The notes under the pieces are model-generated. The model saw only the letters and a list, made by a program, of their open reading frames with translations. It was not told where the DNA came from and did no database searches. This document shows positions 14,650 through 24,213 of a stretch of DNA of 45,366 nucleotides, piece by piece (position 1 is the first letter of the stretch; each line of letters begins with the position of its first letter). This DNA comes from Enterobacteria phage HK225. The position numbers were made by a program, and so were the translations under genes. Location of the stretch: sequence record NC_019717.1; one strand, written 5' to 3'.

Positions 14650-15224
14650 TGACCCGGATTGAGCTTGGCGGCGTGCTCGGGAAAACATTCGGTAAAATTC
14701 ACCACCGCCTGATTTCCCGTGTAAGCGAGGCGGGAGTGGCGCTCGCAAAGACTATTCCGGGCTTTGAGCAGTTTATGATTTCCAGCCAGCGCCGTGGGCT
14801 CACATACTCCGTATTTAAGGGTAAAAAAAACATCGGTGTGGATGACCTCGGTTTCCCGGTTACCGGCGATGTTATCCGCATTGTCCCGGTAATCATCGGG
14901 AGTAAAAAAGCCGGTTTGATTCAAACTATCCTGGGCGCAGTATTAGTGATTGCATCGATCTGGATGCCAGGTCTGAGTATAGCTGCCAGCAATATGATGT
15001 TTGCTGCTGGTGCGTCCATAACGCTGGGGGGGGTAGTTCAGATGATATCCCCTCAGGCTACAGGGCTGGCCAGCAAACAGAGCTCAGATAACCGCGCCTC
15101 ATACGCGTTCGGCGGAGTCACAAACACCGCAGCGCAGGGCTATCCGGTACCGCTTCTTTATGGTCGCCGACGCATAGGCGGCGCAATTATTTCAGCCGGG
15201 ATTTACGTTGGGGATCAACAATGA
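14637..15224 (+). CDS. I: tail assembly protein I
   Basis: 195-aa ORF overlapping the K end; hydrophobic central segment and GYPVPLLYGRRRIGG motif as in lambda gpI. Confidence 0.8.
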   Translation: MQEVMTRIELGGVLGKTFGKIHHRLISRVSEAGVALAKTIPGFEQFMISSQRRGLTYSVFKGKKNIGVDDLGFPVTGDVIRIVPVIIGSKKAGLIQTILGAVLVIASIWMPGLSIAASNMMFAAGASITLGGVVQMISPQATGLASKQSSDNRASYAFGGVTNTAAQGYPVPLLYGRRRIGGAIISAGIYVGDQQ

Positions 15225-15487
15225 AGAAATACTTAAGATTGACCATTTCAGGCCTGCATCGCGTTGATGACGGAATCCTGATCGGCGGAAATGCGACAGT
15301 AATAGTAAACCGTGGCGGAGAGGTTATTTGTCGCGAGAAGTTTTCTGGCAAAGTTTCTGATAAATATTCAAAGCTATATGAAGTTGAAGACACCGGTATT
15401 CCAGTATCAGTAACGTCTTCCAGTGATTGTCAGTTTTTCAAGGCAGAAGCTGATTTTGTAAACCCATTTAGCGAAACAAATATCTGA
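15221..15487 (+). CDS. hypothetical protein (moron between I and J)
   Basis: 88-aa ORF, ATG overlaps the I stop (ATGA); visibly AT-richer than neighbours; followed by a strong terminator; no lambda counterpart. Confidence 0.5.
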   Translation: MKKYLRLTISGLHRVDDGILIGGNATVIVNRGGEVICREKFSGKVSDKYSKLYEVEDTGIPVSVTSSSDCQFFKAEADFVNPFSETNI

Positions 15488-15541: not shown

Positions 15542-18500
15542 ATGGCTATATCTACTCCGATTAGAGGCCGCAAGGGCGGCAGCTCAAGTTCCCGCACCCC
15601 GACTGAACAACCAGACGATCTCCAGTCCGTAGCGAAGGCCAAAATTCTTGTTGCGCTGGGAGAGGGGGAATTTGCAGGACAGTTGACGGCGAAGGATATC
15701 TATCTCGATGGAACTCCACTGGAGAATGCGGACGGATCGCAAAACTTCAGCGGCGTGGCGTGGGAATTTCGCCCAGGGACTCAGGCACAAAAATACATTC
15801 AGGGTATCCCCGGTACCGAAAATGAAATCAGCGTGGGCACCGAAGTGTCAAGCACCACCGGCTGGACACATACCTTTACCAACACGCAACTGTCAGCCGT
15901 TCGCCTGCGCCTCAAGTGGCCATCGCTTTTTAAACAGGAGGATGATGGCGATCTGGTTGGCTATTCAATTAACTACGCTATTGATCTGCAGACCGATGGC
16001 GGCACCTGGCAGACGGTACTTAATACCAGCGTAACCGGCAAGACAACTTCCGGCTACGAACGCAGCCATCGTATCGATTTACCACAGGCAGGCAGTACAT
16101 GGACGGTGCGCCTGCGTAAGCTCACGGCGGATGCCAACAGCGCGAAAATTGGCGACACGATGACGCTGCAGAGCTACACAGAGGTCATTGACGCCAAACT
16201 GCGTTATCCAAACACCGCGCTGTTGTACATCGAATTCGACTCAAGCCAGTTTAACGGCTCTATCCCGCAAATATCCTGCGAACCGCGAGGGCGTGTAATC
16301 CGCGTTCCGGATACGTATGACCCGGAGACCCGCACCTATAGCGGCACATGGACGGGGGCGTTTAAGTGGGCGTGGACGGATAATCCAGCCTGGATTTTTT
16401 ACGATCTGGTGGTGAGCGACCGCTTTGGGCTGGGCAATCGCCTGACGGCGGCCAATATTGATAAATGGACGCTTTACCAGGTCGCGCAATATTGCGATCA
16501 GCCGGTTCCTGATGGTAAAGGCGGTAGCGGCACTGAGCCTCGCTATACCTGCAACGTGTATGTGCAGGAGAGGAATGACGCCTATACCGTGTTACGAGAT
16601 TTTGCGGCGATATTCCGGGGCATGACTTACTGGGGTGGCGATCAAATCGTTGCGCTGGCGGATATGCCCCGCGATGTGGATTACAGCTACACGCGTGCAA
16701 ACGTGGTTAATGGGCGCTTTACCTATTCGGGCAGCACCACGAAAACCCGCTATACCACAGCACTGGTTTCCTGGTCCGATCCGGGTAATGCCTACGCGGA
16801 TGCGATGGAGCCTGTATTTGAGCAGGATCTCGTTGCTCGCTTTGGCACAAATCAGCTCGAAATGACAGCCATTGGTTGTACCAGACAGTCAGAAGCGAAC
16901 CGAAAGGGGCGCTGGGGTATTCTCACCAACAACAAGGATCGCGTTGTTTCGTTCGATGTCGGGCTGGACGGAAACATACCGCAGCCTGGCTATATCATCG
17001 CTGTGGCAGACGAGCTGCTTTCCGGAAAGGTGATGGGAGGGCGTATCAGCGCGGTTAATGGTCGCGTTATCACGCTTGATCGTGATTCCGCAGCCGTTGC
17101 CGGAAGCCGTCTTATGGTTAACCTGCCGTCTGGCGCATCGCAGAGCAGGACGATACAGAGCGTAAACGGTCGGGCTGTCACCGTGACCACGGCATACAGC
17201 GAAACACCGGCAGTCGAATCGGTATGGATTGTCGAATCCGACGAGCTTTATGCACAGCAATATCGTGTTATCAGCGTCGCTGATAATAACGACGGCACGT
17301 TTTCGATTACTGGTGCTTTTCACGATCCGGATAAGTATGCCCGTATCGATACCGGCGCCATCATCGACCAGCGGCCAATAAGTGTAATTCCGCCCGGTAA
17401 TCAGTCCCCGCCAGCCAACATCACGATCAGTTCGTTTTCGGTTGTTCAGCAGAATATCAGCGTCGAAACGATGCGCGTGAGCTGGGACCAGGCGCAGAAC
17501 GCTATCGCCTATGAGGGGCAGTGGCGCCGCAACGACGGAAACTGGGTGAACATGCCTCGCAGCTCCACCACGTCATTTGACGTCCCGGGGATTTATGCCG
17601 GGCGCTACCTGGTGCGCGTGCGCGCAATTAATGCCGCTGAAATTTCCTCAGGATGGGGATATTCAGAAGAGAAGACACTGACCGGCAAAGTAGGTAATCC
17701 GCCTAAGCCAGTAGGATTCACAGCCACGGGCATTAACTGGGGGATTCGTCTTAACTGGGGTTTCCCGGCAAACACCGGCGATACGCTAAAAACGGAAATT
17801 CAGTACACTGCCAACAGTGACTTTTCAGATCCACTCTTGCTCTCAGACGTGCCTTATCCATCTGCGGAATACACCCAGCTCGGCCTTAAAGCAGGGCAGG
17901 AATTCTGGTACCGCGCGCAGCTGGTCGACAGAACGGGTAACGAGTCCGGGTATACCGACTGGATCAGGGGGATGTCTAACGATAACGCCGATGATTATTT
18001 GGGCGATATCGCAGATGATTTCCTAACCTCTGCAGACGGAGAACGCCTGACTGGTGACATCGATACCAACATTGAGGGAATACTGCAGAACGCCCTGGCG
18101 AACCATGGAACTGTTGAGCACCAGTGGGCACAATACGGAGAAGTGCGTGCCGATATTCTGGTGGTTAAAACGACGATTGCTGAAGTTGATAATGCAATGG
18201 CCGAACTTTCGACGCAGGTGCAGGCGCAGATTGAGGATGTTACCGCTTCCCTGGAAGACAAGCTTACAGCTGTCGTAGATGCCTCCGGTGCTTCGGCAAT
18301 CCACACCCTCAAAACGGGCGTGAGAATAAACGGGGTGATTTATAACGCCGGGATGTCTATTGCAGTGCTTGCAGAGGCAGGGAAGCCGGTAGTCACGCGG
18401 GTTGGTTTCAACGCTAACCAGTTCGTGCTGATGAGCGGCAGTGGTGATACCCAGTATTCGCCGTTCGCGGTGGTAAACGGTCAGGTGTTTATCAGCTCAG

Positions 18501-18730
18501 CGTTTATTCAGGATGGCACGATCACCAATACCAAAATCGGTAACTTTATCCAGTCGAACAATTATGTTGCCGGCTCTGTTGGCTGGAAACTGGATAAGTC
18601 CGGGACGTTTGAGAACTACGGTTCGACAGCTGGGGAGGGAGCCATGAAGCAGACCAACCAGACAATCAGCGTCAAGGATGGCAACAACGTTCTGAGAGTG
18701 CAGGTTGGCCGATTAACGGGGGTGTTCTGA
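15542..18730 (+). CDS. J: central tail fibre / host specificity protein J
   Basis: 1062-aa ORF after I; lambda gpJ-like size (1132 aa) and position. Confidence 0.9.
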   Translation: MAISTPIRGRKGGSSSSRTPTEQPDDLQSVAKAKILVALGEGEFAGQLTAKDIYLDGTPLENADGSQNFSGVAWEFRPGTQAQKYIQGIPGTENEISVGTEVSSTTGWTHTFTNTQLSAVRLRLKWPSLFKQEDDGDLVGYSINYAIDLQTDGGTWQTVLNTSVTGKTTSGYERSHRIDLPQAGSTWTVRLRKLTADANSAKIGDTMTLQSYTEVIDAKLRYPNTALLYIEFDSSQFNGSIPQISCEPRGRVIRVPDTYDPETRTYSGTWTGAFKWAWTDNPAWIFYDLVVSDRFGLGNRLTAANIDKWTLYQVAQYCDQPVPDGKGGSGTEPRYTCNVYVQERNDAYTVLRDFAAIFRGMTYWGGDQIVALADMPRDVDYSYTRANVVNGRFTYSGSTTKTRYTTALVSWSDPGNAYADAMEPVFEQDLVARFGTNQLEMTAIGCTRQSEANRKGRWGILTNNKDRVVSFDVGLDGNIPQPGYIIAVADELLSGKVMGGRISAVNGRVITLDRDSAAVAGSRLMVNLPSGASQSRTIQSVNGRAVTVTTAYSETPAVESVWIVESDELYAQQYRVISVADNNDGTFSITGAFHDPDKYARIDTGAIIDQRPISVIPPGNQSPPANITISSFSVVQQNISVETMRVSWDQAQNAIAYEGQWRRNDGNWVNMPRSSTTSFDVPGIYAGRYLVRVRAINAAEISSGWGYSEEKTLTGKVGNPPKPVGFTATGINWGIRLNWGFPANTGDTLKTEIQYTANSDFSDPLLLSDVPYPSAEYTQLGLKAGQEFWYRAQLVDRTGNESGYTDWIRGMSNDNADDYLGDIADDFLTSADGERLTGDIDTNIEGILQNALANHGTVEHQWAQYGEVRADILVVKTTIAEVDNAMAELSTQVQAQIEDVTASLEDKLTAVVDASGASAIHTLKTGVRINGVIYNAGMSIAVLAEAGKPVVTRVGFNANQFVLMSGSGDTQYSPFAVVNGQVFISSAFIQDGTITNTKIGNFIQSNNYVAGSVGWKLDKSGTFENYGSTAGEGAMKQTNQTISVKDGNNVLRVQVGRLTGVF

Positions 18731-18731
18731 T

Positions 18732-19034
18732 ATGGCTTATGGAATACAGACCTGGGATGCTTCGGGAAACCCCAACAACTACGGAATCAAGCCCGTTTCC
18801 GTTGTTGGACGTATACAACTTGCCGCCGGACAAAACTCCGGCAGCTGGTCTTTCACTGTACCCTCAGGAATGAAGGTCGGTTTTGCGCTCTCACTTGATG
18901 AAGGAGGTAACAGCGTAGGGAGGAGCATTGTCGCGTCAGGGAACACAATAACCGTAACCGCAGCCTCTTCTGTGGGCCTGGGTAATTACCCGGCCTCTAA
19001 ATGTGAGGTGGTCGTTTTCATGGAGAAAGCATAA
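18732..19034 (+). CDS. hypothetical protein (tail-tip associated, coupled to J)
   Basis: 100-aa ORF starting 2 nt after the J stop; shares WDASG and SGSW motifs with the next ORF. Confidence 0.5.
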   Translation: MAYGIQTWDASGNPNNYGIKPVSVVGRIQLAAGQNSGSWSFTVPSGMKVGFALSLDEGGNSVGRSIVASGNTITVTAASSVGLGNYPASKCEVVVFMEKA

Positions 19035-19708
19035 TGGCCGAATTTGGCGCGATGATATTAATGGATAACGGGAATCCCTTTGTAACGCCACAATCAACGC
19101 CTTTCTGTCTTTACGGGAAGTATACCTTCAATTCATCCGCGAATGGCAGTTCTCAGCAGGTTGCTCAAAATATCGCTTTAAACGCTGATTACCCAGTGAT
19201 GGTTTTTATCAAAACCACCAATACAGCACAGCCCACTCCGGTTATGTCTTACAGGAACGGCGGTAATGTGTATGTTGTTGGTGTTAATCCCTACAACCAA
19301 AGTTTCACTTTAACGGCGTACGTTTTTGCCATATTCCCGCAGATATTACCGAAATGGGGTTTGGCAATATGGGATGCGAGCGGAAAGCTTGTGTTAACTA
19401 ATGAGTCCCGTGTGCTATCAGACCTGCAGACGGTTGGCACGCCTGGTGCAAACGGCGGGATAAATATTGACCAGACGCTGAGCGGGTCATGGGCCGTTGC
19501 ACCTGCTCAGTTGGGTCAGACCATCATTGTGAATAATTCAACCCAGCCTCCGACTATCTACACGATAAATGCTTATTCTTCATGCAGGTTTGACGGGGCC
19601 AATACGAGGATAAACGCAGGGGGGACCTCCACTGGGACAGGTTCACCTGTAGGGGGAACGAATACTGGCATTTCATTAACCGCCATAAATACAGCGGCCT
19701 ATGATTGA
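19034..19708 (+). CDS. hypothetical protein with two copies of the WDASG-type module
   Basis: 224-aa ORF, start overlaps the previous stop; Gly/Thr-rich C-terminus. Confidence 0.5.
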   Translation: MAEFGAMILMDNGNPFVTPQSTPFCLYGKYTFNSSANGSSQQVAQNIALNADYPVMVFIKTTNTAQPTPVMSYRNGGNVYVVGVNPYNQSFTLTAYVFAIFPQILPKWGLAIWDASGKLVLTNESRVLSDLQTVGTPGANGGINIDQTLSGSWAVAPAQLGQTIIVNNSTQPPTIYTINAYSSCRFDGANTRINAGGTSTGTGSPVGGTNTGISLTAINTAAYD

Positions 19709-19730
19709 TTGATCGTTTTTAGCGATCAAT
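19708..19730. promoter_or_regulatory. palindrome ATTGATCG-N7-CGATCAAT upstream of the lipoprotein gene
   Basis: perfect 8-bp inverted repeat in an AT-rich intergenic region. Confidence 0.3.
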
Positions 19731-19819
19731 AACATAATATTGATCTATCCAATCAATTATACCCACCAGAATTGTATTGGTATCGTCTAAGATACTGAAT
19801 TCCTCTGGATACTATCAAA

Positions 19820-20053
19820 ATGAGAAAACTGATTATCTGCATGGCAGGCGCTGTCATGCTTACAGGATGCGCTGGCGTAATTGAGAAACAGGAACCAGTT
19901 TGCAGCGGCACTGCAATCGTTGGCGGTCAGGAAACTACGGTTCAGATTTACGGTGTGCGTAAACAAAACAACCAGACGCAGTACCGGGCTGGATATCCTT
20001 TCAGCTGGCGCTGGGTAAGTGCGAATACATTTACCGAAACAACCTGCAAATAA
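19820..20053 (+). CDS. small lipoprotein, candidate Cor-like superinfection exclusion protein
   Basis: 77 aa; signal peptide with lipobox LTGC; own AT-rich upstream region and terminator; sits in the lom/cor slot between J and stf. Confidence 0.5.
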   Translation: MRKLIICMAGAVMLTGCAGVIEKQEPVCSGTAIVGGQETTVQIYGVRKQNNQTQYRAGYPFSWRWVSANTFTETTCK

Positions 20054-20074
20054 CCCACTACGCTTAAACATAAA

Positions 20075-20096
20075 CCTCGCTCCGGCGGGGTTTTTT
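20075..20096 (+). terminator. intrinsic terminator after the lipoprotein gene
   Basis: CCTCGC-tccg-GCGGGG stem followed by TTTTTT. Confidence 0.65.
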
Positions 20097-20116
20097 ATTG
20101 CCCGAAAGGAGCGCAT

Positions 20117-20977
20117 ATGTCTGCAGGAACTATCACCCTGACAAACGGGTCCGCTGTTGTTGGCGGTGCCGGAACCTCATTCGCAACCGAACTCGCCGGA
20201 GGTGATTTCATTGTTTCGACTGTGGGCGGTGTGCCCTACACGCTGCCGGTGAAAACGGTCGACAATAATACCCAGGTGACGCTGGTCAGCAACTTCACCG
20301 GGCCAACACAATCCGGCGCGGCCTGGTCAGCTGTGCCACGCGTGGCGCTGAACATGGTCACTGCCGCGCTGGTGGCGCAAAGTGCCGAAGCACTACGTGG
20401 TTTGAATTACGATAAACAGAACTGGCAGCAGGTTTACAGCGCCGCCGGAAACATCACAGTGAAGTTGCCAGACGGCACCACTTTCACCGGCCCATCATGG
20501 AAATATCTGTCTGACAATATGGCAACCAAGAGCGGTGGTGCAGTACCCGTTAACCAGGGAGGGACCGGGGCGACAACCGGAAACGCCGCGCTGTCCAATC
20601 TGGGTATCACCTATGTCAGGTCAGGAACAAACTACAGCGTGATAAAAATTGGCGATATTTATCAAATGGATTTCCTCATAGGTGGCGGCATCGCAATAGG
20701 GGCGTATAACCCTTCGGTAGTGGGAGGTATTGCGTATTACACGCACTACTATAAATTACCCCTGCCGATGGCATTACCAAACGGCGTTATAACTGCCATT
20801 GCGTCCATTTCGGGTGACAGATTTGGAAATCAATACCCCGGATACAATGCTGACGTTAAAGTATCCAGAGATAAAGATGATGGCAGTGGGCTATTAACAA
20901 CATATTTAACCGTCAGCGTTAAAACTCCTCAGACAGGCTGGACCCCTTATTTTCATATAAGAGTGGTGGGGTATTGA
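20117..20977 (+). CDS. stf: side tail fibre protein (short)
   Basis: 286-aa ORF, Gly/Thr-rich N-terminus MSAGTITLTNGSAVVGGAGTSF typical of enterobacterial tail fibres; immediately followed by a tail fibre assembly gene. Confidence 0.6.
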   Translation: MSAGTITLTNGSAVVGGAGTSFATELAGGDFIVSTVGGVPYTLPVKTVDNNTQVTLVSNFTGPTQSGAAWSAVPRVALNMVTAALVAQSAEALRGLNYDKQNWQQVYSAAGNITVKLPDGTTFTGPSWKYLSDNMATKSGGAVPVNQGGTGATTGNAALSNLGITYVRSGTNYSVIKIGDIYQMDFLIGGGIAIGAYNPSVVGGIAYYTHYYKLPLPMALPNGVITAIASISGDRFGNQYPGYNADVKVSRDKDDGSGLLTTYLTVSVKTPQTGWTPYFHIRVVGY

Positions 20978-20978
20978 T

Positions 20979-21392
20979 ATGAAATATTTTTACAGCATCA
21001 GCACGCAGGGATTTTACCTCGATAACGGTATGCTGGATGCGTATAAAGCGGCTGGCTCACTACCTGCGGACTTGCAAGAGATGAGCGAGGCTGACTATCT
21101 GGCGTTTTTTAATCCTCCCGATGGATTCGCGGGCATATTTGACGAGAAAGGACCGCGTATTGAACAACTGCCAGAACTGGACCCGCTGGCGATAGCAGAA
21201 AATCAACGGCGGCTGTTGCTGTCAGAAATCGCTCCGACTATTTCTGTATGGCAGACAAAAATCCTGGTGGGCATGAAACTGAGTGATTCAGAAACCGCAG
21301 CCCTGCATGCCTGGTTGAGTTACAGTGATGCGCTGAACGCGCTGGATATCACCGTGCCAGATATTCAGTGGCCTGAAAAACCCGCAGCGTGA
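20979..21392 (+). CDS. tfa: tail fibre assembly protein
   Basis: 137-aa ORF 1 nt after stf; MKYFYS...GFYLD N-terminus typical of Tfa chaperones. Confidence 0.7.
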   Translation: MKYFYSISTQGFYLDNGMLDAYKAAGSLPADLQEMSEADYLAFFNPPDGFAGIFDEKGPRIEQLPELDPLAIAENQRRLLLSEIAPTISVWQTKILVGMKLSDSETAALHAWLSYSDALNALDITVPDIQWPEKPAA

Positions 21393-21407
21393 TGTGATTT
21401 TCATTAA

Positions 21408-21433
21408 CCGGGCAGAAAAGGATGACTGCCCGG
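21408..21433. terminator. hairpin between convergent tfa and dinI (possible bidirectional terminator)
   Basis: CCGGGCAG-N10-CTGCCCGG inverted repeat. Confidence 0.35.
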
Positions 21434-21449
21434 TGATGTGAATATGTAA

Positions 21450-21689
21450 TTAATCAGCAACCAGCCACATGTCAGATTCTTCAAACATCTCTTCAAGCAT
21501 ACGATTAAGCCGTTCTTTCTCTGTTTTCGTGCAGTTGCTGTTTAGCGCGTTCGCCTGCATCGGCTTTACCTTCACTTCGGCACCAGGGAAAATCTGGTGC
21601 ACCCGCTTCGTCAGTTCGGCCAGAATGATCTCCCTGGCCCCTTCGAGCCCCTCAACATTTCGCTTGTCATAAACCAGTTCAACAAACAT
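21450..21689 (-). CDS. dinI: DinI-like SOS-induced protein
   Basis: ATG at 21689 is preceded by AAGAGGA; 79-aa product aligns with E. coli DinI (ELTKRVHQIFPG, EESDMWLVAD); the upstream part of the 208-aa track ORF is rejected. Confidence 0.75.
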   Translation of the reverse strand: MFVELVYDKRNVEGLEGAREIILAELTKRVHQIFPGAEVKVKPMQANALNSNCTKTEKERLNRMLEEMFEESDMWLVAD

Positions 21690-21745
21690 ACCGATCCTCT
21701 TATAAGTGAAAACTGCCTGTGCTTGATCTGTTTTCATAAAAATAC

Positions 21746-21765
21746 TACTGTATATACATACAGTC
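21746..21765. promoter_or_regulatory. LexA box (SOS operator)
   Basis: TACTGTATATACATACAGTC matches CTGT-N8-ACAG; lies between dinI (-) and the divergent ORF at 21789 (+). Confidence 0.8.
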
Positions 21766-21788
21766 AATGAGCGAGTGAGGGTGCATTT

Positions 21789-22088
21789 ATGCCTCGTCAA
21801 CCGGATATTCGTGCTGCTTTTATTGCGGCCATACAGCAAAACCCGAAGGGCTATCTCTGTCTGCATACAGACAAGTTCATCGCTGAACTGCAGGAGAGGA
21901 ACTGGCATTTCAGTCAGGCGGATGCAAATACATGGATCGAGCGATACCAGCCGGACTTCGCCGATAAGACGACAAACGAAAGCGAGAACCGGTACTGGAT
22001 CCTGCGTAACATGGGGAGGGTTCTGAGGAGTTATCTTGCGATGCGCTATAGGTTTGCCCCATCCCTCCCAAACCAACCTTTTTTATAA
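21789..22088 (+). CDS. hypothetical protein, divergent from dinI
   Basis: 99-aa ORF with GAGG-type SD; begins 24 nt after the LexA box. Confidence 0.45.
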   Translation: MPRQPDIRAAFIAAIQQNPKGYLCLHTDKFIAELQERNWHFSQADANTWIERYQPDFADKTTNESENRYWILRNMGRVLRSYLAMRYRFAPSLPNQPFL

Positions 22089-22147
22089 CCATCAAAAATC
22101 TGGTGATGCTTCGCCGTTTCTCCTGTTTTCATAACAGGAGAAATCCC

Positions 22148-22696
22148 ATGATTTACGGTTATGCCCGAGTATCAACAAACCACCAGGACACTGAATTGCA
22201 ACTAACGGCGCTCAAGTCAGCGGGTTGTGAGAAAATTTTTGAAGAGCATGCCAGCGGGAGGAAATCGAATCGGCCGGTTCTAAAACGGCTGATCGCCACT
22301 ATGCAGCCGGGGGATGAACTGGTGGTCTGGAAGCTGGACAGGATAGGCCGCAACGTTCTGCATGCGCTGTTGATGTTCCAGCAGTTACAGGAAAAGGGTA
22401 TCAACTTCCGCAGTATTACCGATGGCGTGGATCTCAAAACAGCCAGCGGCCGCTATAACTTTCGTAACATCCTTTCCGCAGCACAATATGAATCTGATCT
22501 TAATAGCGAACGTACCTTAGCAGGGCTGGCCGTAGCCAGGGCAAAAGGGCGAGTTGGTGGTCGCAGGCCTAAGTTCACGGATGAGCAATGGCGGGAAATG
22601 GGGGAGCGGATGGCAATCGGTGAATCACGACAAAGCGTATCAAAAACGTATGGAGTAGGGCTCTCAACTCTGTATAAAAAGTTTCCAGCTAGCTGA
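22148..22696 (+). CDS. serine recombinase, DNA invertase (Hin/Gin/Pin family)
   Basis: ATG at 22148 after AGGAGA; MIYGYARVSTNHQD catalytic-Ser N-terminus, VVWKLDRIGRN, C-terminal HTH ending GLSTLYKKFPAS. Confidence 0.85.
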   Translation: MIYGYARVSTNHQDTELQLTALKSAGCEKIFEEHASGRKSNRPVLKRLIATMQPGDELVVWKLDRIGRNVLHALLMFQQLQEKGINFRSITDGVDLKTASGRYNFRNILSAAQYESDLNSERTLAGLAVARAKGRVGGRRPKFTDEQWREMGERMAIGESRQSVSKTYGVGLSTLYKKFPAS

Positions 22697-22716
22697 TAAC
22701 GGGAAAGAAACAGAGA

Positions 22717-22760
22717 AGGGCACAAATATTGTGTACTTTAATGTGCCCTTTAATTTATTG
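22717..22760 (+). terminator. hairpin with T-rich tail after the invertase
   Basis: AGGGCACA-N17-TGTGCCCT stem followed by TTAATTTATT; loop contains a TGTGTAC motif. Confidence 0.45.
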
Positions 22761-23015
22761 ATTGGTGGTTGAATTGTCCGTAACTTTTTGATTTAAGTTC
22801 AAATTTCTAATAAATTAGAACACTTTCTTAAATTGTCATTTGGCATATTACGAACAATTCCGCGTAAAAACGTTCTGTTACGCTAAACCCTTATCCAGCA
22901 GGCTTTCAAGGATGTAAACCATAACACTCTGCGAACTAGTGTTACATTGCGTGTAGCTTTGAGTGGGCAACTTTGTGTACACTTTTGTGTACCCAAAAAC
23001 AAAAATGTGTACCCA
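22720..23015. other. candidate attP region with TGTGTAC repeats
   Basis: AT-rich non-coding region upstream of int; TGTGTAC at about 22731, 22975, 22987 and 23007; contiguous phage DNA on both sides. Confidence 0.35.
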
Positions 23016-23019
23016 TTCA

Positions 23020-24213
23020 ATGATCACCGACACAAAGCTCAGGAAGGCGCTCGGCAAGAAAAGAGATGATATCGAGATTATTTCTGATTCGCACGGGCTC
23101 AACGCCAGAATCAGCCAGGCCGGAAAAATATCATTTTTCTATCGGTATCGCTGGGCCGGTAAAGCGGTAAAACTCAATGTTGGTGATTATCCTGCAATGA
23201 GTATCACCCAGGCAAGAGAACGTCGCCAACAATTCAGAAACTGGTTAACTGAGGGACTGGATCCGCGAGAGCAGGTGAAGCTGGATAAGCAGACCCGACA
23301 GGAAGCGATGTCCGTTGCCGAAGCGTTCAATTACTGGATTGAAAGGCACTGTATCGCTAACGGGCTAGTTAAAGTCGATTACTATCGCCAGGTGTTTGAG
23401 AAACATATCGCCGAACCGATGAAGAATGTCAAAGTCGATAACACAGCGAAAATGCACTGGATCAACGTCTTCGATTCTATAGAAAGCAGGGTGATGGCTC
23501 ATTACATGCTTTCGCTGTGCAAACGGGCGTTTAGGTTCTGCGTTAACAGAAGTGTGATCGCCTCAAACCCACTCGAGGGATTACTGCCATCTGATGTCGG
23601 GCAAAAGCCTAAAAAGAGAACTCGCAGGATGGACGATGACGATCTGCGCAAAATCTATCAGTGGTTGAAAAGCCATATGTCGATAGAGTCCGTTTTCCTG
23701 GTGAAATTTATTATGCTTACCGGATGCCGTACGGCTGAGATTCGACTTAGTGAGAGATCATGGTTTCGATTGGATGATAATGAGTGGGTCGTGCCTGCGG
23801 GCAGTTATAAAACTCGGGTACATATTAGAAGGGGACTCTCAGACGCCGCCGTTAACCTGGTCAGAAATCACCTCAAGAAAATAAACACCAATCACCTGGT
23901 GACTTCACAACGTAAAATTGATGGCGGGATCAAAGATTCGCCCGTTCATTCACCTGTGGCATCCAATTACGCCCGTTCTATTTGGAATGGAACAGGTATG
24001 GCAGAGTGGTCGCTTCATGATATGAGGCGGACGATAGCCACAAATCTCTCTGAGTTAGGTTGCCCGCCGCACGTAATTGAAAAGCTGCTCGGGCATCAGA
24101 TGGTGGGGGTTATGGCGCATTACAACCTTCATGACTATATCGATGATCAGAAACACTGGCTCCGCGTTTGGCAGAGCCATCTTGAAGAGATCATCGGAGA
24201 GCCCTTCAGTTAA
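23020..24213 (+). CDS. int: tyrosine integrase (P4-like family)
   Basis: track ORF starts at GTG 22963; [11 protein letters not shown]-terminus is typical of P4-type integrases; catalytic-region motifs HDMRRT and LLGH...HY; start could also be ATG 23005. Confidence 0.85.

Follow-up and report, generated by a model that had tools for sequence, protein, structure and literature searches.

Genetic Organization of the Locus

The window considered here is the whole 45,366-nucleotide stretch of DNA that was analysed, from Enterobacteria phage HK225 (sequence record NC_019717.1); its lambdoid tail region reads, in order, J, a gene for a small protein (ORF100), a gene for a larger one (ORF224), cor, a terminator, the side tail fibre gene and the gene of a Caudo_TAP assembly protein (see Table 1). 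The product of J is matched by the Pfam families FNIII-A_GpJ (1.9e-50), Phage-tail_3 (6.9e-14) and Phage_Tail_Tip (8.6e-43, residues 904–1039), and stops shortly past the last of these domains, without a C-terminal receptor-binding domain of the lambda type. The TGA stop codon of J ends at 18730 and the ATG of ORF100 stands at 18732, leaving a single nucleotide between the two genes, while the stop of ORF100 and the start of ORF224 overlap in the sequence TAATG (19032–19036); the limits of both reading frames and their translational coupling to J, as given in the initial annotation, are borne out by this arrangement. The order J, ~100-aa gene, ~220–245-aa gene was found in all of the 15 loci inspected, which belong to phages of Escherichia, Salmonella, Klebsiella, Erwinia, Serratia, Burkholderia, Xanthomonas, and Ralstonia; phage BabyEgg seemed to lack the small gene, but this turned out to be an annotation error, an intact homologue being present in another frame.

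Table 1: Features of the J–cor region of HK225; positions are those of the window.
Feature	Position	Strand	Matches and remarks
J, central tail fibre/tip attachment protein, 1062 aa	15542..18730	+	Pfam domains (see text)
J tip, last ~67 codons of J	18527..18730	+	Left end of the putative exchanged host-range cassette
ORF100 (phi80 gp22 type), module 1, 100 aa	18732..19034	+	phrog_557, 3.1e-36; predicted arm 1–22, predicted β-sandwich 23–100
ORF224 (phi80 gp23 type), 224 aa	19034..19708	+	phrog_425
ORF224 N-half (residues 1–106), module 2	19034..19351	+	Predicted arm 1–24; variable sandwich body 25–91
ORF224 C-half (residues 107–224 and stop), module 3	19352..19708	+	Predicted arm WGLAIWDASGKLVLTNESRVL, 108–128; distal variable region 161–215
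cor, superinfection-exclusion lipoprotein blocking FhuA	19820..20053	+	NCBIfam NF047972, 9e-42; phrog_1119, 7e-37
Intrinsic terminator after cor	20072..20093	+	9-bp stem with 5 GC pairs, then T run; right end of the putative cassette

Identity of the Two Proteins

In HMM matches, ORF100 falls into phrog_557 (residues 1–99 on profile positions 1–100 of 100; E value in Table 1) and ORF224 into phrog_425 (E = 2.8e-80; residues 1–224 on profile positions 1–224 of 224); scans of both proteins against Pfam and NCBIfam returned no family, and PDB sequence searches with the single ORFs and with the ORF224 family profile gave no real match. The DNA at ~18500–20102 is 99% identical to mEp237, 98.7% to HK140 and 88% to phi80, in which the matching DNA is annotated as gene 22, “gp22 (100)”, and gene 23, “gp23 (224)”, followed by cor; the counterpart of ORF100 is gene 021 in mEp237 (99% DNA identity) and gene 22 in phi80 (88%). 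At the protein level, ORF224 is 91% identical to its homologue in phi80, 59% to those in JLBYU60 and JLBYU37, and 51% to that in T1, with 100% coverage in each case; 354 phage records contain homologues, those of HK022, T1, Dhillonvirus, Hanrivervirus, Klebsiella Webervirus, and ES18 among them. The segment also occurs in 49 of 5426 complete genomes, annotated as “hypothetical” in every case; in two complete E. coli chromosomes the identity is 100%.

The two ORFs are the phi80 gp22/gp23-type pair (PHROG families 557 and 425), a feature which is already known and whose genes are near-identical to published phage genes; the initial annotation, in which no known family was recognised, was wrong on this point. 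Orthologues of the same lengths, and in the same order J-small-large-cor, are phi80 gp22 (100 aa)/gp23 (224 aa), mEp237 021/022, HK022 p24/p25 and the corresponding proteins of T1 and ES18 (gp30/gp31 in the latter); no substantive difference sets them apart from the HK225 pair, and their records call them “hypothetical” or mislabel them as “membrane” proteins. Dhillonvirus JLBYU60 encodes members of the same families (YP_010740311, “Ig-like”, and YP_010740312, “hand-like”; identity of the large protein 59%), for which the same role has been proposed by Matusiak et al. (2025, PMC12309495), who see in them the tail-tip proteins, hitherto missing, that bind the receptor FhuA. More generally, pairs of the gp22/gp23 type have already been discussed as candidate receptor-binding proteins (PMC8594841; PMC12309495; bioRxiv 10.64898/2026.04.02.716166). 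What is added by the present analysis is the three-module architecture and a fold-level link to a solved LptD-binding protein; an internal duplication, or a relation between the small and the large protein, is mentioned neither in the Matusiak paper (PMC12309495) nor in the paper on the LptD binder, and no link of the pair to DUF6453 was met with in the literature consulted, where DUF6453 itself is named by a single paper.

The PHROG labels themselves (“outer membrane protein” for phrog_557, “membrane associated protein” for phrog_425), together with the position of the genes next to the moron cor, would point to host-membrane or lysogenic-conversion proteins. Such a function is barely credible: the N-termini, MAYGIQTWDASG and MAEFGAMILMDNG, carry no signal peptide, searches of both ORFs for a lipobox and for transmembrane or amphipathic-barrel features were negative, and neither has a hydrophobic segment, the maximum of the Kyte–Doolittle 19-residue window being 1.14 and 1.18, respectively; published estimates of membrane affinity are likewise low (PMC12309495). 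Moreover, both ORFs are translationally coupled to J within the late operon, while cor is driven by a promoter of its own (the phi80 annotation describes it as a moron and gives its promoter, lipobox, and function), and the pair is also carried by phages that are strictly lytic, namely, T1-like phages, Dhillonvirus, and Webervirus.

Three Copies of One Module

The initial annotation had called attention to a motif G-x-x-(W/M)D shared by the N-terminus of ORF100 and by both halves of ORF224, and had suggested a domain present three times. The motif indeed occurs three times, as Y3-G-I-Q-T-W-D-A-S-G12 in ORF100, as F4-G-A-M-I-L-M-D-N-G13 in the N-half of ORF224 (a degenerate copy) and as W108-G-L-A-I-W-D-A-S-G117 in the C-half, but its spacing had been misread, since 3-4 residues, and not 2, separate the G from the W/M-D. 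The second motif reported, SGSW, is found in ORF100 (36–39) and in the C-half of ORF224 (150–153), but the N-half has NGSS in its place.

Direct comparisons reach little beyond the motif: BLASTP of ORF100 against ORF224 returns only ten residues (YGIQTWDASG versus WGLAIWDASG, E = 0.028), narrow family profiles give a match of 12 residues only and, when those of the N-half and the C-half are compared by hhalign, no significant score (E = 0.19), and a search of 1.84 billion representatives with the ORF100-family HMM retrieved ~100-aa relatives and long repeat proteins, but no ORF224-like protein. It could thus be argued that the shared motif is convergent or fortuitous, a common β-hairpin turn rather than the mark of a triplicated ancestral module; this explanation, with which the weak direct BLASTP match, the marginal similarity of the two halves, the chance-level SGSW match and the HMM search that left the families unlinked are all consistent, becomes very improbable once broader profiles and intermediate sequences are taken into account.

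Broad profiles of the three segment types, S (the small family), LN (residues 1–106 of the large family), and LC (residues 107–224), took in T1, ES18, Sweeny, Eho49, PMBT35, ZDD2, and one Burkholderia phage, and their hhalign scores were judged against column-shuffled target controls (300, 100 or 60 shuffles). S against LN scores 27.6 (null 10.2 ± 2.0, z = 8.9, 0/300), with an alignment that is full-length and collinear from residue 1; S against LC scores 37.1 (null 11.3 ± 2.4, z = 10.7, 0/300), the match covering the start of the C-half, whose arm matches the small-protein family with P = 2.4e-6; LN against LC is marginal when compared directly (z = 2.0–2.5, 15/300). With the motif removed, the body of S (21–100) is still collinear with that of LN (23–106; z = 6.1, 0/100), while the bodies of S and LC do not match (z = 0.1), and the direct SGSW match is therefore at chance level. 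The SGSW sites line up solely via a Burkholderia bridge sequence.

The bridge was found by tblastn with ORF224, which revealed an unannotated 102-aa ORF directly after J in Burkholderia phage vB_SBP9. Residues 4–73 of this small protein align with residues 109–180 of ORF224 (39% identity over 75 aa, E = 2e-11), and the protein finds a match in each half of the 238-aa protein encoded next to it (C-half, E = 2e-5; N-half, E = 9e-5); it is a member of phrog_2427 and matches phrog_557 over its full length as well (3e-4). The phrog_2427 profile, in turn, matches ORF100 over nearly its full length (0.0022), the C-half of ORF224 over 66 residues (E = 0.0025) and two stretches of the large Burkholderia protein, one in each half (3.6e-6). 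Six small/large pairs from β/γ-proteobacterial phages, whose hosts are Burkholderia, Xanthomonas, and Ralstonia, complete the network of matches: their small family matches S over the full length (probability 95.6%, P = 1e-8) and the enterobacterial LC (93%, P = 3e-7, z = 13), their large halves match LN and LC (97-98%), and within the six pairs the small family matches its own large N-half (84%, full length, z = 15), its own large C-half (72%, z = 9.5), and the two halves match each other (z = 4.0, 0/60). In the phages of these three genera the three arms are nearly alike (VGLQIWDASGRLILDGK, VGFQAFTDTGLYQIDGK, and FGLQVFDASGSLIADAS).

Against a chance resemblance, therefore, stand alignments that are collinear and full-length and extend beyond the motif, the 75-residue bridge, an independently curated HMM (phrog_2427) that matches all three segment types in register, and the fact that no shuffle reached the observed score in the trials of 300, 100 or 60 given above as 0/300, 0/100, and 0/60. 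With family profiles and intermediates, pairwise and profile alignment places the similarity well above chance, and the proposal of a domain present three times fits this evidence; judged from these profiles, one module of ~100 residues occurs in three diverged copies, ORF100 representing module 1 and ORF224 modules 2 and 3. S and LN are related along their entire length, S and LC for ~75 residues or more; beyond that, LC has diverged too far to be followed by sequence methods, and homology of the C-half past ~75 residues rests on intermediates.

Predicted Fold and Conservation

The AF2 models of both proteins are all-β, and confident, with a pLDDT of 90.4 in the case of ORF224 and of 81.3 in that of ORF100; confidence is low only at the start of each protein, over ~20 residues. 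Seven strands are predicted in ORF100 (23–30, 37–40, 47–54, 62–69, 72–77, 85–87, and 91–99), and the spacing of those in the N-half of ORF224 (25–33, 40–48, 55–62, 69–75, 78–85, and 92–99) runs parallel to it; the C-half opens with an arm hairpin (111–113 and 119–122), followed by seven or eight strands. The nearest solved folds to the ORF100 sandwich include H-type lectins, and Foldseek comparison of ORF100 with viral models gave weak matches only. As modelled, the module consists of a conserved N-terminal β-hairpin arm ([FYW]-G-h-x-h-[WF]-D-x-x-G...), followed by a predicted Ig/H-lectin-like β-sandwich. A claimed relationship of the small protein to the Ig-like domain at the C-terminus of lambda J was also considered, and no profile or fold similarity was found.

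Conservation is unevenly distributed over the large protein: the arms (0.73 in the N-half, 0.79 in the C-half) are the most conserved parts within the family, and the sandwich bodies are the most variable (0.40 for residues 25–91, 0.44 for residues 161–215). In ORF100 it is uniform, ranging from 0.70 to 0.79.

Possible Relation to the LptD-Binding Proteins

A comparison was made with the Pfam family DUF6453 (PF20051), represented by Rtp44 and by chain C of PDB entry 9RPT, the receptor-binding protein of phage Oekolampad (Bas18), which is a full-length homologue of Rtp44 (E = 8.5e-44). In Rtp44, as in the Oekolampad protein, three starts resembling the arm lie ~100 residues apart; those of Rtp44 are GIYIDLNDGRK at residue 4, GIYVADSTDFA at residue 116, and GINIFNSNNQC at residue 210. 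Across the junction of modules 2 and 3, residues 56–128 of the ORF224 family align by hhalign with residues 156–229 of the Rtp44 family (P = 1.1e-4, probability 56%, z = 7.1, 0/60); taken module by module, LN matches module 2 of Rtp44 with z = 4.2 and the LC arm matches the module 3 arm with z = 3.9, S against module 1 being weak (z = 2.0). The Pfam HMM of DUF6453 matches neither ORF100 nor ORF224 at E ≤ 1, nor any of ten diverse relatives of the large protein at E ≤ 10, and internal repeats within DUF6453 alone are not significant; the fold of the solved member, 9RPT chain C, does correspond to that of the pair.

The evidence lends moderate support to the view that the HK225 pair and DUF6453 share the same fold, and that the latter is probably a distant homologue in which the three modules are fused. 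The differences are nonetheless considerable: DUF6453 proteins are single chains of 311–327 aa (311–321 aa in the Rtp44 family), whereas the HK225 pair is split into 100 + 224 aa; their receptor is LptDE, unlike that of the FhuA-type pair; identity is only ~10%; and in Rtp the genes and J occupy opposite strands. A 2026 preprint (bioRxiv 10.64898/2026.04.02.716166) describes the families for FhuA and for LptD as unrelated. The 311-aa LptD binders nevertheless appear to contain the same three modules in one chain, which would imply a fission or a fusion.

A wider scheme can be put forward, tentatively and with more doubt than confidence, according to which the FhuA-type pair and the DUF6453 binders would form one old superfamily of three tandem arm + β-sandwich modules; each of the three near-identical arms would dock onto one subunit of the J trimer, seating a monomeric, asymmetric binder on a tip of three-fold symmetry, the resulting pseudo-threefold adaptor would resolve the 3 : 1 mismatch with a monomeric FhuA or LptD, and in FhuA-type phages a break between modules 1 and 2 would have divided the chain. 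The Oekolampad protein is a monomer on the extracellular face of LptDE, its tail-proximal part being disordered (LptD paper). A weak resemblance of the arm to the last hairpin of J itself, TISVKDGNNVLRVQVGRLTG (z = 4.3), would fit a stacked layer of hairpins continuing the J trimer.

A Probable Horizontally Exchanged Cassette

The last 67 residues of J are 93–97% identical to those of phi80 and mEp237 and 70–75% identical to those of T1-like phages, and the preceding 73 residues are only 36–41% identical to any, so that a sharp mosaic boundary falls 67 residues before the stop codon of J. At the DNA level, matches to mEp237, HK140, phi80, and mEp213 begin at positions 18476–18526 of the window, and similarity to mEp237 and phi80 stops at 20102, past the terminator of cor, which the annotations of phi80 and mEp237 place at the same position after cor. 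The left boundary agrees with the report that the C-terminal tip of GpJ is receptor-type specific (bioRxiv 10.64898/2026.04.02.716166). As delimited by these breaks in similarity, the J tip, both ORFs, and cor constitute a putative horizontally exchanged host-range cassette (~18527–20093), of a kind typical of FhuA-dependent phages.

Proposed Role in Receptor Binding

In small siphophages, receptor specificity follows the locus that lies downstream of gpJ, where one family is specific for FhuA (PMC8594841; bioRxiv 10.64898/2026.04.02.716166); FhuA dependence has been reported for phi80, JLBYU60, JLBYU37, and T1 (Lewis 2023). The HK225 pair has the features of such a FhuA-type locus (Maffei 2021; 2026 preprint), lying directly downstream of a gpJ homologue and next to Cor, with more than 30% identity to proteins of FhuA phages at approximately full coverage. 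AF2-multimer models place the large protein both on the J trimer and on FhuA (PMC12309495). The suggestion of the initial annotation that the two ORFs encode tail-tip or host-range accessory proteins fits the repeat, the location after gpJ, the fold match and the coinheritance with the J tip and cor, but the term “accessory” probably understates ORF224, the best candidate for the receptor-binding protein itself.

The reading which we favour, and consider likely though by no means assured, is that the pair are soluble all-β tip proteins, ORF100 acting as the tail-proximal adaptor and ORF224 as the distal, monomeric FhuA binder. Both proteins are expressed from the late tail operon, with translation coupled to that of J. 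They would occupy the end of the J trimer, a trimer that in this phage has no receptor-binding domain of its own; ORF100 would be the adaptor nearest the tail, the ORF224 monomer would recognise the monomeric FhuA transporter via the variable surfaces of its sandwiches, the conserved arms would dock the modules to one another and to the J tip, and Cor would inactivate FhuA in lysogens. Virion location, stoichiometry, FhuA binding, and the role of the arms are those we infer to be most likely; the adaptor role of ORF100 is made uncertain by AF2-multimer models which favoured direct contact of the large protein with J (PMC12309495).

The task so assigned to the pair, that of recognising the receptor where the J trimer ends, is the one performed in lambda by the C-terminal receptor-binding domain of J. 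A functional analogue is found in T5, where pb5 and the Llp lipoprotein represent a monomeric FhuA binder on a trimeric tip and a FhuA-blocking lipoprotein (PMC9586334). In PDB sequence searches, pb5 shows no sequence relation to either ORF or to the ORF224 family profile. It is, moreover, a single and much larger protein.

Two other roles have to be weighed. In the first, the two proteins would be alternative caps, an ORF100 homotrimer or an ORF224 monomer ending the J spike in different virions and conferring two receptor specificities (hypothesis 1, Matusiak et al. 2025). AF2-multimer could dock either protein on the C-terminus of J (PMC12309495), and the Ig/lectin-like sandwich of ORF100, with the H-type lectins among its nearest solved folds, would be in keeping with such a function; that two alternative caps exist is nevertheless improbable, given that the uniform conservation of ORF100, next to the variability of ORF224, is unlike that of a second adhesin, that the pair was never split in the 15 loci inspected, that DUF6453 carries equivalent modules in one chain, which argues for one assembly, and that models of ORF100 with FhuA scored worst (PMC12309495). 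In the second, one or both proteins would be chaperones that help the J tip or the side fibre to assemble and do not enter the virion, kept beside J for coexpression and taking no part in receptor binding. This role is unlikely, if a shade less so than that of alternative caps, and is compatible with the behaviour of tail-fibre assembly proteins, which are also small and translationally coupled to a fibre gene, and with the annotation of ES18, which lists gp33 as “present in virion” and gp30 and gp31 as “function unknown”; a search of the literature for virion evidence on the pair, and for a virion proteome, a mutant, a binding study or a tip structure of the phi80/T1-type pair, found none.

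Significance

The genes of the HK225 window are in themselves ordinary, having already been sequenced in mEp237 and phi80; the interest of the locus lies in the fact that it decides which outer-membrane protein is used by a large group of siphophages, comprising lambdoid prophages, T1-like phages, Dhillonvirus, and Klebsiella Webervirus. If proteins of the ORF224 type are FhuA binders sharing ancestry and architecture with the LptD binder, the cassette (J tip, module 1, modules 2-3, and exclusion lipoprotein) would be one unit, and could be used as such when receptors are predicted from genomes and host-range swaps designed. PHROG-based annotation could then be rid of its misleading “membrane protein” labels, and the conserved arms would become obvious targets of mutagenesis for the attachment of a monomeric binder to a trimeric tip.

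Gene order at the related loci

At the loci inspected, the small gene (the ORF100 type) directly follows J, the central tail fibre/tip protein, with the sole exception, among 15 loci, of Xanthomonas phage phiL7, in which an extra gene of 166 aa (P21; locus L015, 1001-1501) lies between J and the small/large pair. A different arrangement is found in phage Rtp (locus L011, 6753-7918), where rtp44, an LptD-type binder, and rtp45, its exclusion lipoprotein, are encoded on the strand opposite to J and are convergent with it; unlike these two genes, the FhuA-type pair is coupled to J and runs in the same direction.

In two phages the small gene is present but missed or misframed in the deposited annotation (see Table): the 102-aa ORF of Burkholderia phage vB_SBP9 is an ORF100 homologue by both position and sequence (phrog_2427, 8e-31), while in Escherichia phage BabyEgg an ORF of 66 aa in the wrong frame has been called where an intact homologue sits. 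In vB_FUBS1, the entry for the gap matching that of the vB_SBP9 ORF is 'none'.

Homologues of ORF224 of the T1/Dhillonvirus type, with 50-62% identity, occur in eight 'Campylobacter phage' records (MG065679, MG065648 and others) and in 'Pseudomonas phage Motto' (ON843697); the host assignments of these records look doubtful, and the phages may be coliphage contaminants.

Relatives of the module

The extreme C-terminus of J (window 18650-18727, residues ~1037-1061), TISVKDGNNVLRVQVGRLTG, bears a weak likeness to the arm, the N-terminal beta-hairpin of the module, both in the comparison with the beta-proteobacterial small family (P=0.0035, z=4.3, 0/60) and in that with the arm of the large protein C-terminal half (z=3.6); judging from sequence, the end of J may be a fourth copy of the hairpin. 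Among long proteins, the ORF100 family HMM matched the tandem Kre9/KNH-like Ig-like domains (PF10342) of a 433-aa protein (P0298; E=1.4e-6), through a stretch reading 'SGSWTW.IP', as well as other long repeat proteins whose annotated repeat domains vary (SdrD_B, MBG); such matches fit a sandwich of the Ig-like kind, rather than a specific relationship.

Neighbouring genes and exchange of segments

The 88-aa ORF preceding J, which has no match in Pfam or NCBIfam, matches only the middle of the profile phrog_2571 (positions 99-178 of 291; function unknown).

Table. Features in the window and small-gene homologues in other phages
Feature	Location	Remarks
88-aa ORF	window 15221-15487	flanked by gene I (tail assembly) and J
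286-aa fibre with Tfa	within window 20117-24213	
DinI/MsgA-like ORF		after fibre and Tfa; minus strand
DNA invertase	window 22103-22696	after DinI/MsgA-like ORF; phrog_125, 7.5e-75
Tyrosine integrase	window 22963-24213	after DNA invertase
102-aa ORF, unannotated	L010 2492-2800 (vB_SBP9, PQ789808.1)	TTG start; directly after J
ORF100 homologue, intact	L004 about 1189-1500 (BabyEgg, PP925846.1)	55% identity; other frame than deposited call

In the HK022-type phages (HK544, HK106, mEpX1 and others), DNA similarity covers 18502-19494 and ends inside ORF224, at codon ~154; since it stops there and the homologues of these phages are 212 aa long, the sequences suggest that position 19494 is a recombination breakpoint, at which the variable C-terminal ~70 residues of ORF224 would be swapped. 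The side-fibre module (20117-24213) is unlike that of mEp237, DNA similarity stopping at 20102, and the invertase gene lying beside those for the fibre could be a sign of host-range switching.
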